This document shows positions 60,489 to 63,818 of a DNA stretch of 64,000 nt, in pieces. The position numbers and the translations under genes are program-made. The notes beneath the pieces were generated by a model that ran no database searches, was not told the origin of the DNA, and saw only the letters and a program-made list of their open reading frames with translations. The stretch comes from a virus. How positions within the stretch are numbered: the first letter of the stretch is position 1; each line of letters opens with the position of its first letter. The stretch is from UHGV virus genome UHGV-1366990; one strand, given 5' to 3'.

Positions 60489-60788
60489 TTGAATATGAAA
60501 GATTTATCCCCTTTATCTCATGCAGTTTCAGTTATTACATTGCAGTGTTTATTCGGCATGCTTGCGGGGAAATGGCTTGAAGGAGGCGTAATGGGTTGCA
60601 TGTGGTTTATCGCCCGTGAGCACACCCAGGCTGAGTATCGCTGGCTCGCTCAGTTCGGCGCAGGGAAGCGCGCCAATATGCCGTGGTGGGGAGGGTTCTC
60701 CTGGCGCGCATGGAATGTGCCCAGTCTGCTCGACTGGCTTGTGCCGGTGCTGGCGTGCACTGTCGTTTATTTCGTAGCCACACTTTAA
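60489..60788 (+). CDS. small two-TM membrane protein (paralog of 63525-63818)
   Basis: 99 aa; about 60 percent identical to the 63525-63818 product, with shared core FIAREHTQAEYRW...GKR.NMPW.GGF..RAW..PSLLDWLVPV; immediately downstream of a tailspike gene. Confidence 0.6.
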   Translation: MNMKDLSPLSHAVSVITLQCLFGMLAGKWLEGGVMGCMWFIAREHTQAEYRWLAQFGAGKRANMPWWGGFSWRAWNVPSLLDWLVPVLACTVVYFVATL

Positions 60789-60878
60789 CTCCTGGCGGGA
60801 TTATTGATAGGTATCACCGCATTGATCTGCACTGCCTTTAAAACTACTGTGTATAAAACAGTAAAAGGAGTGCAGATC

Positions 60879-61007
60879 ATGCCCCGCCGTCACGACATTC
60901 ACGCCGCATTTGTGGCCGCAATACAGCTAAACACAAAGGGCTGCCGATGCTTACGCACAGAAGACTTTATCCGCGAACTGGCAAAGGTCCACTGGTATTT
61001 CAAATAA
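60879..61007 (+). CDS. very small ORF (42 aa), speculative
   Basis: Internal ATG at 60879 of ORF 60804-61007 has a strong SD AAGGAG; product MPRRHDIHAAFVAAIQLNTKGCRCL... Confidence 0.3.
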   Translation: MPRRHDIHAAFVAAIQLNTKGCRCLRTEDFIRELAKVHWYFK

Positions 61008-61040
61008 ATGACGAACCTTGATAGGAACAGAAGCCCTTCA

Positions 61041-61079
61041 CTAAATACCCCATATTGGCAAATCCTTTATGGGGTATTT
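61041..61079 (+). promoter_or_regulatory. late-promoter-like CTAAATACCCCAT with inverted partner ATGGGGTATTT (11-bp arms)
   Basis: Motif at 61041-61053, inverted copy at 61069-61079, tailspike ATG at 61084. Same architecture as at 54883-54923. Confidence 0.45.
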
Positions 61080-61083
61080 TCAT

Positions 61084-63513
61084 ATGTCCAGACCAGTCGA
61101 AAGCATCTTTGGAGCCGTGGTCACCGCTCCTCACCAGATTCCATACACATACACAGCCGTAGGTGGCGAAACGTCCATCTCTCTCCCCGTATTCCCTGTC
61201 ACAGGCCTGGTCACTATCGGTGGCGGCGTACAAGTCCCACTCGACAACTATGAGATAGAAGGGAACGTCCTTCATCTTGGTGGACCTCTTGAACCGGGCG
61301 ACGTTGTGTACTGTCTGTTTGACAAGGTACTGTCTCCAGAAGGTCAGAACTCTACCACTCGCATCTACAAATTCAAATCAGTGGGTGGAGAAACTTCATT
61401 CACTCCAGACTTCACTTCCTATGGCGTGCAGTCGCTGTACATTGATGGGAAATACCAGACGCCGATTGATGACTACACCTACAACAAAGAGACTGGCGTT
61501 GTCAGCCTGAAGACCGCAATTGTCGGGGCTGGGAAATGGGTTGTGGCTGAACTGTATGTACAACAGAATTACCCGGCGCTGGCAGCTCCTGATGGTGCCG
61601 ATATGATCGGGGTTCCAACAACAGAAACTTCTTTGGGGGAATTGCTTTCATCTGATGATATGGCCATCAAATATGGTTATGTCAACCCAACAATCAGTGA
61701 AAGGCTTGGGCGTGAAGGGGCGAAGGTTGTTTTGGTCGGCGACAGTCTGAGCAGTTTCTTCAACATAGATTCTGTGAACACAGCGTCTATCTTTGAGTCT
61801 TACCTGCGCCGCAAGATCAGAGAATTCAATGGTACGGCGAAGTTCTACAACAGAGCCATCGGTGGCAAGCGTTACTATGACTTGGGTAGAAATGAACCGC
61901 CTCTTGATACTCTGACGAGCGGATACCCTTGGTATACAGACACGTCCAAGCGTTGGATGACTTACTTGGACGATCTTAAACCAGATGTGATCTTCTTAGC
62001 CTTTGGTATGAACGATGGTCCGGGATGGGACGTAGGTAACTTTCAGCAAGATAACTTCTTCAAGATGATGGAAGAACTTAAGTCCATCAGTTCAAGCCCT
62101 GAGTTGGTGTTCTGTACCAATATTCTTCCTTCTACAACACATGTTGATACCGCAGCAGAAGACCAGCAGCAGGGGCGTGATGCGATGGCTGGCTGGACAA
62201 GAAGTTTTGCCAGAAAGGCGGGATATAGCTTCCTTGATCTTCATAGACGTTTCAAATGCTTACGTGATGGTGTAGACCCGTGCATGGCTAGTTATGCCCG
62301 TAAAACCATTCAGAAAGTGGTGTCGCTTCCGTATGTACACACCGCCCAGTGTGATATGTATTCGGCTCGGGTAATTTTGATCGATCCAGCCGTCGCGACC
62401 ACAGGTATTAGATTCCAGTTGTCGAAGTATTCTAACAACTTCATGACCTTGAAATACGATACCACGACATCTCGCTGGATAACGACCGCATATACAGCTT
62501 CTTCGTCTTCCGTTGGCGTCGCTGACCAGAGTTCTATGCCTGGCCCAGCCCCGGCTGAGGGAACAGAGATATACTTCACCATGAACGGTGACGTTGTCGT
62601 AATAACCATCGGCATCAACACATATCCGGTGTTCAGCCGTAATATTGTGCGCTTCGGTGGTAAATTCTTCCCTGAAATCGGCGGAACTGGTGATATTCGG
62701 ATTGACATGATTGAGGGTACGCCCATCCCTGTTAAATCAGAGCTGACGGATTATGATTGCTACAACACCGACGGCGATGGCGGGAATGGCATCAACCACC
62801 CAACAGCCAAAGCGAGTTCCCGAATTTATACTCGCGTTGTTGACGACTGGTTCAGTATGCTTGCTGGGTCTGTGAGTTCCAGAAAGCAGGTGCTGGACAT
62901 TGACTTTGTCAACGGCACTGTTGTGGTGAGAAACCCGTATAGCCCAGAACTATCTTGTGAAGCCAAAATCAGCGCCGCCCTGACTTTTATCAACGGATCA
63001 CTCGCATACCAACGCGACGCTCAGGGACGTGTCATTGGAGCGGTATTTGGGGCTACGAACAGAGCATATGTTGACCAGGCGTTCTTCAATGCTTATGCGG
63101 GGAATTACAGCCAGCTCACATTTGAAGTAGAGTTCGTTGCCCCGGGCGCCCAGGCATACATCTGCACGTTCGGGGAAAACACCACAAGTGACCGAATCAT
63201 GGCTCAGGTCACAAGTGATTTACGCCCAAGAATCACGGCAGCCGTGGCATCACAAGCCAGTGACCTTTTCGGTTCGGCTTCGTTCCCATTTGTTGCTGGC
63301 CGGAAATACGCTTTGAAATTCTCTTTAGATTGTGAGAATTCGGTCGCGCGAATGTGGGGGCAGGACAACTCCGCGCGAGGTAACATCAACGTTACCCCTA
63401 TAACCGCCATATCTCCGGCGACATTATCCAAGCTGAAGTTGGGTTATGCGTCAACTGGAACATTTGGTGTTGATGTCGTGGTTTCAAGAATCAGAGTCTG
63501 GTTCTCCAACTGA
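61084..63513 (+). CDS. tailspike protein with SGNH/GDSL esterase domain (candidate polysaccharide deacetylase)
   Basis: ATG at 61084 (the ORF-track ATG at 61069 lies inside the inverted repeat); SGNH blocks VVLVGDSLSSFFN (block I) and FLAFGMNDGP (block III); N-terminal beta-sandwich domains resemble those of the 54927 gene. Confidence 0.65.
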   Translation: MSRPVESIFGAVVTAPHQIPYTYTAVGGETSISLPVFPVTGLVTIGGGVQVPLDNYEIEGNVLHLGGPLEPGDVVYCLFDKVLSPEGQNSTTRIYKFKSVGGETSFTPDFTSYGVQSLYIDGKYQTPIDDYTYNKETGVVSLKTAIVGAGKWVVAELYVQQNYPALAAPDGADMIGVPTTETSLGELLSSDDMAIKYGYVNPTISERLGREGAKVVLVGDSLSSFFNIDSVNTASIFESYLRRKIREFNGTAKFYNRAIGGKRYYDLGRNEPPLDTLTSGYPWYTDTSKRWMTYLDDLKPDVIFLAFGMNDGPGWDVGNFQQDNFFKMMEELKSISSSPELVFCTNILPSTTHVDTAAEDQQQGRDAMAGWTRSFARKAGYSFLDLHRRFKCLRDGVDPCMASYARKTIQKVVSLPYVHTAQCDMYSARVILIDPAVATTGIRFQLSKYSNNFMTLKYDTTTSRWITTAYTASSSSVGVADQSSMPGPAPAEGTEIYFTMNGDVVVITIGINTYPVFSRNIVRFGGKFFPEIGGTGDIRIDMIEGTPIPVKSELTDYDCYNTDGDGGNGINHPTAKASSRIYTRVVDDWFSMLAGSVSSRKQVLDIDFVNGTVVVRNPYSPELSCEAKISAALTFINGSLAYQRDAQGRVIGAVFGATNRAYVDQAFFNAYAGNYSQLTFEVEFVAPGAQAYICTFGENTTSDRIMAQVTSDLRPRITAAVASQASDLFGSASFPFVAGRKYALKFSLDCENSVARMWGQDNSARGNINVTPITAISPATLSKLKLGYASTGTFGVDVVVSRIRVWFSN

Positions 63514-63524
63514 CGGAGTCTTTA

Positions 63525-63818
63525 ATGAACATTGACATATCTCCTATTCTTCACGCCCTGGTCGCTACCGCCCTGCAAGCAATTGCGGGGTTACTCTTGG
63601 GGGACTGGGTAATCGGAGCAGTAATGGGCTGCACGTTCTTCGCCGCCCGTGAGCACACTCAGGCTGAATACAGATGGATCTCCCAGTCCGGTAAGGGTAA
63701 GCGATCCAACATGCCTTGGTATGGCGGGTTTGACTACCGGGCGTGGGATATCCCGAGCCTCCTGGACTGGTTGGTTCCTGTAGTTGGATGTACAGCGTTG
63801 TATTTCATAGCAGCATAA
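63525..63818 (+). CDS. small two-TM membrane protein (paralog of 60489-60788)
   Basis: 97 aa; SD GACGGAG; paralogous to 60489-60788; downstream of the esterase tailspike gene. Confidence 0.6.
   Translation: MNIDISPILHALVATALQAIAGLLLGDWVIGAVMGCTFFAAREHTQAEYRWISQSGKGKRSNMPWYGGFDYRAWDIPSLLDWLVPVVGCTALYFIAA

Follow-up and report, generated by a model that had tools for sequence, protein, structure and literature searches.

Two copies of a widespread small membrane-protein gene, apparently acquired independently, trail tailspike genes in an Agtrevirus-type phage

The stretch of DNA analysed here, 64,000 nucleotides of the virus genome UHGV-1366990 (this whole stretch is called the window below), holds the tailspike (TSP) cluster of an Agtrevirus-type phage of the Ackermannviridae. 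Its nearest records are the Shigella phages MK-13 and Ag3, whose match is limited to the N-terminal anchor regions of the spikes. Our subject is a pair of small genes in this cluster, both on the plus strand and both encoding putative membrane proteins of 97 amino acids from the family phrog_1443. Copy 1 (60495-60788) starts 14 nucleotides past the stop codon of a 693-residue tailspike composed of a Tail_spike_N anchor and a beta-helix binding domain (58399-60480, plus strand), and copy 2 (63525-63818) starts 11 nucleotides past the stop codon of an 814-residue tailspike in which a TSP2-type N-terminal anchor is joined to a GDSL/SGNH esterase binding module (61069-63513, plus strand). A sequence-only reading of the window had described two related open reading frames (ORFs), each directly 3' of a tailspike gene, and these gaps bear the description out; the two proteins are 62% identical over 93 residues (E-value 9e-49), far beyond chance. 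The shared core quoted in that reading is real and turns out to be the signature of the whole family. Its length for copy 2 (97 residues) also stands, whereas the 99 residues given for copy 1 imply a TTG start at 60489. We prefer the ATG at 60495, as it agrees with the family consensus MxDxSPLLHA and with a 97-residue gene call in a sister phage. The ATG of copy 2 is preceded by GGAG at a distance of 7 nucleotides. The base composition of the small genes (0.537, versus 0.494 for the window) carries no foreign signature.

Both proteins match the profile of phrog_1443, a family of unknown function, with E-values of 2e-37 for copy 1 (a full-length match, residues 3-95 on profile positions 2-94 of 97) and 2.2e-41 for copy 2, and neither has a match in Pfam, NCBIfam, PADLOC or PDB. 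An exhaustive profile search gathered 390 clusters at 50% identity, all of them 63-142 residues long and none fused to another domain, from Enterobacteriaceae, Aeromonas, Halomonas, Comamonas/Acidovorax, Chelativorans, Sphingomonadales and Desulfovibrio. Of 5426 complete E. coli genomes, 2068 (38%) carry the gene, with a median of 2 places per genome and up to 8; the places number roughly 5000 in all, two of them in strain ATCC 11775, for example. Its annotation in E. coli is 'hypothetical protein' in 11 of 11 on-gene matches among the matches listed. phrog_1443 is a very common and widespread, uncharacterised family of small inner-membrane proteins. Full-text searches of the literature, covering Ackermannviridae tsp clusters, genes downstream of tailspikes, phage 21, motif strings and the phrog identifier, returned nothing on the gene. 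The linkage to receptor-binding-protein (RBP) genes, the island structure and the homologues outside phages that we describe below appear to be undescribed in the searchable literature.

Proximity to RBP genes is a genuine and general trait of the small gene. In 89 of 112 phage-type loci, the end of a same-strand ORF lies no more than 100 nucleotides upstream of it, and in 48 no more than 30, although the ORF caller was crude, especially for high-GC loci, which makes such locus counts approximate, and many of the locus pairs used further below are non-independent. Several of the loci have 4-nucleotide overlaps. Every upstream cluster from gamma- and beta-proteobacterial loci that was scanned and carries a functional label is a tail protein. 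The cluster representatives are tail fibres and tailspikes of many unrelated PHROGs, among them P22 Head_binding, Tail_spike_N and pectate-lyase-like proteins, Peptidase_S74-type fibres and lambdoid Stf. The arrangement, in which the homologue mostly lies directly behind a fibre or tailspike gene, recurs in P22-like, lambdoid, P2-like, Ackermannviridae, Aeromonas, Comamonas and Chelativorans phages. P22-like prophages at argW, for example, have the order head-binding tailspike, small gene, a gene for a 79-residue protein, a UmuD-like gene and intS. In lambdoid phage 21, the side tail fibre gene is followed by a gene for a 92-residue protein, the small gene and sitABCD cargo. In the P2-like Halomonas phage phiHAP-1, the homologue overlaps a fibre-assembly gene by 4 nucleotides and the sheath gene comes next, and a 4-nucleotide overlap, here with a tail protein gene, is also seen in a Chelativorans prophage. 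Linkage to tailspikes in other phages and conservation of the ORFs, two points on which the sequence-only reading had made its own proposal depend, have thus been checked, with homologues mostly adjoining RBP genes and the small genes real and conserved. As a side observation, the 92-residue protein of phage 21 (L001, 5710-5988) belongs to a conserved, acidic type of 92-93 residues and of unknown function, without a Pfam match. In phage 21 and at many prophage loci of E. coli, the gene for this protein comes after that for the lambdoid side tail fibre, and what follows it is either the small membrane gene or a gene for a second fibre of 346 residues.

A different picture is seen in Sphingomonadales. 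Homologues there are chromosomal and sit amid housekeeping genes (rmuC, a DsbA-like gene, def-fmt-recR, ligA, sensor kinases), with neither phage genes nor an RBP gene nearby. No neighbour recurs across these loci, and hence no conserved operon partner was found. Two of the neighbourhoods are related to the envelope. In one alpha-proteobacterial locus (L160, 6001-6971), a homologue of the Sphingomonad type overlaps a DsbA-like thioredoxin gene by 4 nucleotides, amid rmuC, def, fmt and recR. In another group (L150-L152), the homologue lies ahead of an Lpp-like lipoprotein gene and an L,D-transpeptidase-like gene, a pair confined to this one close group.

The sequence-only reading had supposed that tailspike and small gene were duplicated together as a cassette. 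This supposition fails, as the two spikes are different proteins and each copy has closer relatives elsewhere, with identities of up to 86% for copy 1 and 84% for copy 2, versus 62% between the two. Among 535 ranked relatives, the window partner comes only 123rd for copy 1 and 40th for copy 2. The surroundings of copy 1 resemble a temperate phage: positions 58972-60940 share 75% DNA identity with a P22-like prophage of E. coli N9, and the similar block runs from the binding domain of the 693-residue spike through copy 1 into the gene behind it. This gene, a 42-residue ORF with a strong AAGGAG ribosome-binding site (60879-61007, plus strand), is the truncated N-terminal half of the 79-residue prophage gene which trails the small gene in P22-like prophages and whose product RefSeq annotates as 'PH domain-containing'; the region is 99% identical at the DNA level in the sister phage L153. 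It is therefore plausible that the cassette with copy 1 was imported from a temperate phage, the 42-residue ORF being a remnant carried along. The surroundings of copy 2 point elsewhere. Positions 61591-63648, which comprise the esterase binding domain and the first 124 nucleotides of copy 2, share 97% DNA identity with the unrelated virulent Escherichia phage Phapecoctavirus anhysbys (L002). The GDSL/SGNH-esterase module thus has its match in an RBP from another phage family, and this looks like a recent cross-family exchange of a probable O-antigen deacetylase module. No megablast match for 61600-63856 was found in E. coli genomes that might indicate the donor of copy 2. We thus regard the two genes as probably independently acquired copies, each following a binding domain that an unrelated phage also has, and we are quite confident of this identification and evolutionary history.

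A natural swap of the binding domain in front of copy 2 could be followed by comparison with L153, a contig of 157,634 base pairs with the same layout as the window. The two align at 91% identity from 53600 to 61610, and the alignment resumes exactly at 63525, the first position of copy 2, at 95% identity. For 61611-63524 there is no counterpart in L153, where a spike of 586 residues takes the place of the 814-residue spike. Despite this difference in binding domain, the copy 2 proteins of the two phages are 97% identical. On the 5' side, the junction of the swap maps to 61591-61610, where the conserved N-terminal anchor ends. As 17 nucleotide differences fall into 63525-63730 and only one into 63731-63856, the right-hand crossover must have occurred inside copy 2. 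Sharp boundaries of this kind are common in the family. Among 1044 locus pairs whose small genes share at least 88% DNA identity, the homologous stretch sets in no more than 20 nucleotides from the start codon in 610 and breaks off no more than 20 nucleotides from the stop codon in 499. By these comparisons, the small gene is a conserved island with sharp bounds, flanked 5' by a hypervariable binding domain and 3' by variable cargo. The longest exact DNA matches to other loci are short, reaching 48 nucleotides for copy 1 (median 17) and 15 for copy 2 (median 9), so that recombination anchored by long exact matches receives only modest support and protein-level selection would be the main source of the conservation.

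What is conserved at the protein level was assessed with an AlphaFold2 model built on a 65-sequence alignment (predicted local distance difference test score, pLDDT, 92.4). The model has three helices (6-25, 28-55 and 76-96), not the two hydrophobic helices of the sequence-only reading. Across the 65 gamma- and alpha-proteobacterial members, 16 residues are invariant (R42, E43, T45, Q46, E48, Y49, R50, G58, R60, M63, P64, W65, G67, G68, D81 and P85), and H10 is nearly so, being retained even by the most distant members. The gamma- and alpha-proteobacterial proteins are 40-48% identical and share an invariant polar loop of 35 residues. The family protein may thus be described as three predicted helices with a highly conserved polar, Trp-rich loop, and all of the family-invariant residues are retained by both window copies. 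The alpha-proteobacterial homologues have a basic turn between the first two helices (H1-H2) and a basic C-terminal tail (3.8 Lys plus Arg on average), and therefore an N-out/C-in topology with the conserved loop in the periplasm seems plausible. The window and enteric copies lack a charged tail, the protein ending with the third helix. In two distant homologues (P0263 and P0343), an insertion of about 40 residues lies in the loop, between the equivalents of the QAEYRW and NMPWWGG motifs, which suggests that the loop is outside the membrane core. A lipoprotein reading of the 'GC' at residues 35-36 was considered and rejected. The N-terminus is acidic and lacks a basic n-region, and Cys36 comes only after 35 residues and shows no conservation outside the enterics, the alpha-proteobacterial homologues included.

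As for expression, consensus scans of the stretch from RBP gene to small gene, across gaps of -4 to about 30 nucleotides, detected neither a sigma-70-like promoter nor a terminator, be it in the window, in the N9 prophage (L154) or in phage 21 (L001), though the scans were simple and weak promoters could escape them. With no such signal separating the two, the small gene looks like the last cistron of a late RBP transcript and not like a classical moron. Selection is more difficult to judge. Copy 2 differs from its L153 counterpart by 14 synonymous and 3 non-synonymous changes, a ratio of non-synonymous to synonymous substitution rates (dN/dS) of 0.057, and both copies are intact in these two phages, which are about 9% apart in DNA. 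The dN/dS value counts for less as proof of selection in this phage, for the differences cluster in the recombinant segment and the signal may in part be the inherited history of the donor.

The close spacing of spike and small gene, and the fact that the gene adjoins RBP genes in most phage loci, could be taken to mean that the product is a partner of the preceding spike, either its dedicated chaperone or a factor that modifies the receptor, in each case matched to this spike. The sequence-only reading had offered both roles, and the block shared with anhysbys, in which the binding domain and the first 124 nucleotides of copy 2 travel as one unit, would suit them. However, the small protein does not follow the spike. 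We compared the last 300 residues of the RBPs and found that these C-termini are unrelated in 29% of locus pairs with at least 95% identical small proteins, and in 71% of pairs in which the small proteins are 85-95% identical. In L153 a different binding domain precedes a nearly unchanged copy 2. Decayed copies lie directly behind RBP genes in three virulent phage groups, and those RBP genes are still annotated as full-length ORFs. The anhysbys copy is cut off after about 40 codons. In the Salmonella Kuttervirus KFSST3 (vB_SalA_KFSST3; L156, 3980-4105), a copy behind a TSP2-type spike stops after 35 family-like residues, and in the group of the 47-kb Escherichia phage 6947 another decayed copy follows an RBP gene (L157, about 3965-4120). 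Further points against a matched partner are that a nearly invariant loop contrasts with hypervariable RBPs, that Sphingomonad homologues have no RBP nearby, and that the protein is, by the model, a membrane protein while spikes fold in the cytoplasm. Nor do the small proteins resemble assembly chaperones of tail fibres and tailspikes (Tfa and gp38-type), since they match no such family in Pfam or NCBIfam, have three hydrophobic helices and do not co-vary with the fibre tip. Given the L153 swap, the unrelated C-termini and the decay behind full-length RBP genes, we consider a spike-specific role very unlikely and the small gene, judged by these comparisons, not specific to its spike. On the other hand, precisely because it is not spike-specific, and because swap crossovers fall at or inside it, the gene would work as a portable anchor of homology on the 3' side. 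Recombination hotspots have been proposed to lie in the conserved flanks of RBP modules (PMC10408124). Those flanks and the small gene are alike in that conserved sequence shared across phage taxa stands directly 3' of hypervariable binding domains, with homology boundaries at the edges of the small gene and a crossover inside it. They differ in that the published flank is a short non-coding, terminator-like motif, while here it is a protein-coding gene under purifying selection. The decayed copies in KFSST3 and in the 6947 group are unannotated. The KFSST3 copy is of the E. coli-prophage type, and from its sequence we take it to be a third, probably independent, acquisition in the Ackermannviridae.

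Two other roles have to be weighed. Holin genes trail fibre genes in T4 (t after gene 38) and in T7 (17.5 after gene 17), and a small protein encoded by the last cistron of a late operon could be a holin, an antiholin or a holin accessory which sets the time of lysis. Three hydrophobic helices in about 100 residues is the count of a class I holin, the basic turn and tail of the alpha-proteobacterial homologues fit its N-out/C-in orientation, and the lack of a detectable promoter makes late expression probable. A check of class I holin topology by charge census, however, gave C-in for the alpha-proteobacterial homologues and a contradictory result for the enteric ones, where the charged tail is missing. 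No endolysin or spanin gene was found in the flanks examined, where the neighbours are tailspike genes, prophage cargo and housekeeping genes (the last in Sphingomonads), and no Pfam holin family matches. Moreover, the gamma/alpha identity and the invariant polar loop are unlike fast-evolving holins. We thus find a lysis-timing protein quite unlikely. A somewhat better case can be made for the idea that both genes are pure passengers, functionless in this virulent phage, imported as the 3' flank of binding-domain cassettes and not yet decayed. The truncated prophage gene behind copy 1, the decay at the same position in three other virulent phage groups, and the fact that no homologue turned up in the Agtrevirus relatives checked (MK-13 and Ag3) all fit this idea, as does the concentration of copy 2 differences in the recombinant 5' segment. 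Against it stand the retention of every family-invariant residue in both copies, their intactness in two diverged phages, the excess of synonymous changes and the good ribosome-binding site of copy 2. We regard the passenger explanation as rather doubtful, though less so than a role in lysis.

The explanation we favour is that the small protein is a generic accessory inner-membrane protein which would act on a conserved component of the host envelope. It would probably reach this component from the periplasmic face, through a cluster formed in the model by H10, R42, E43, E48, R50, R60 and D81. Conservation across phage morphotypes and bacterial classes argues for a conserved host target, or for a small catalytic or ligand-binding site, and not for a phage-specific partner. 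The benefit would likewise be generic, either exclusion of incoming phages or remodelling of the envelope, and would serve mainly temperate phages. In many virulent ones the protein may be dispensable, given the truncated copies in anhysbys, KFSST3 and the phage 6947 group. Several observations weigh against this explanation. The want of an own promoter and terminator points to late lytic co-expression with the spikes, which is a poor fit to exclusion by a lysogen. The enteric loop carries 5.4 Lys plus Arg, which favours a loop inside the cell, in contrast to the alpha-proteobacterial signal for a loop outside. In an Aeromonas jumbo phage and at a Desulfovibrio locus, the gene adjoins a helicase/terminase gene and not an RBP gene. 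Finally, two intact copies with a low dN/dS may be read as a sign of function in this very phage. Altogether, we would give the explanation as a whole about an even chance of being right, and the specific mechanism, exclusion or envelope remodelling, is put forward only tentatively. More speculative still, and in our view unlikely, is that phrog_1443 is a family of miniature membrane enzymes or ligand-binding proteins which remodel a universal envelope intermediate. The conserved His/Glu/Glu/Asp/Arg cluster, placed by the model at the membrane interface, may be the candidate site, and the cellular homologues in Sphingomonadales may be in keeping with it. Candidate substrates may include an undecaprenyl-phosphate-linked glycan, a lipid head group or a peptidoglycan precursor.

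As a kind, the small gene seems to resemble known accessory genes which flank RBP genes. In temperate phages, seroconversion genes trail tailspike genes, be it gtrABC and oac (P22/Sf6-type) or, in epsilon15 and D3, genes for small hydrophobic peptides that inhibit Wzy. The small gene has the same slot, between the tailspike gene and int/att, in P22-like prophages at argW, and its product is a membrane protein for which a periplasm-facing conserved loop is plausible from the model. Yet it is far more conserved than serotype-specific factors, it has no Pfam match to O-antigen conversion factors (GtrA, Oac/acyltransferase, Wzy inhibitors), and the family is also present in Sphingomonadales, which are not known to have a classical lipopolysaccharide O-antigen. 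Cor and Llp (phi80/N15 and T5) are likewise accessory envelope proteins genetically linked to a receptor-binding gene. They are outer-membrane lipoproteins that block one specific receptor, FhuA, whereas phrog_1443 has no lipoprotein signal and accompanies many unrelated RBPs. P2-like phages have a variable accessory-gene slot behind their tail-fibre genes (the Z/fun position), and we take the phiHAP-1 homologue, between fibre-assembly and sheath genes, to occupy this slot. The phenotype of Z/fun is T5 resistance, and Z/fun is unrelated to phrog_1443. The nearest functional precedent may be HK97 gp15, a small inner-membrane superinfection-exclusion protein encoded by a moron in the tail operon, with chromosomal YebO homologues (PMC3594210). 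The likeness lies in a small inner-membrane protein, a gene in the tail operon, horizontal spread among phages and chromosomal homologues outside phages. Morons are recognised as extra genes that close relatives lack (PMC3594210), and among the phages near the window phage the small gene is of this kind: MK-13 and Ag3 show no homologue, L153 alone shares the gene, and KFSST3 has a remnant. However, gp15 bears no sequence relationship to phrog_1443, it is expressed from the prophage with its own promoter and terminator, signals which were not found for the small genes, and its gene lies between the tail chaperone and tape-measure genes and not behind an RBP gene. The small proteins also lack a Pfam match to the superinfection-exclusion families HK97 gp15/YebO, T4 Imm and P22 SieA, even at E-values of up to 1.

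RBP modules are the phage parts most exchanged in nature and most engineered for therapy, and the small gene trails them across podo-, sipho- and myoviruses and in more than a third of complete E. coli genomes, often in several copies. Should its product act in exclusion or envelope remodelling, this would bear on host-range prediction and on the design of chimeric tailspikes, since engineered swaps might carry or drop the gene unknowingly. Were it instead a miniature enzyme, a general, receptor-independent companion of host recognition, co-expressed with RBPs, would have gone unnoticed in those same genomes. Even an inert passenger in virulent phages would still be a useful marker of the temperate-phage origin of a binding domain. 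Independently of function, the sharp module boundaries and the internal crossover define a concrete 3' junction of natural binding-domain exchange, which could serve recombineering.

The remaining features of the cluster lie on either side of the two cassettes. Upstream, a 403-residue protein (53663-54874, plus strand) is followed by a 1089-residue spike with Tail_spike_N and beta-helix (54897-58166, plus strand). The gap between the latter and the 693-residue spike gene holds a GC-rich hairpin at 58353-58370, CCCCATC...GATGGGG, which was marked as terminator-like on either strand; it may be a terminator between the two genes or a motif for recombination. On the minus strand, a cluster of three tRNA genes (Ser-GCT, Asn-GTT and Met-CAT) lies at 47538-48472. 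Downstream of copy 2, a further tailspike gene starts at 63857 on the plus strand and runs off the window at 64000. Its N-terminus (MKQLFNQGGQGSTGIMSNKQAIARRFGVKQSEV) is similar to that of the 693-residue spike, and its counterpart in L153 is a spike of 534 residues.

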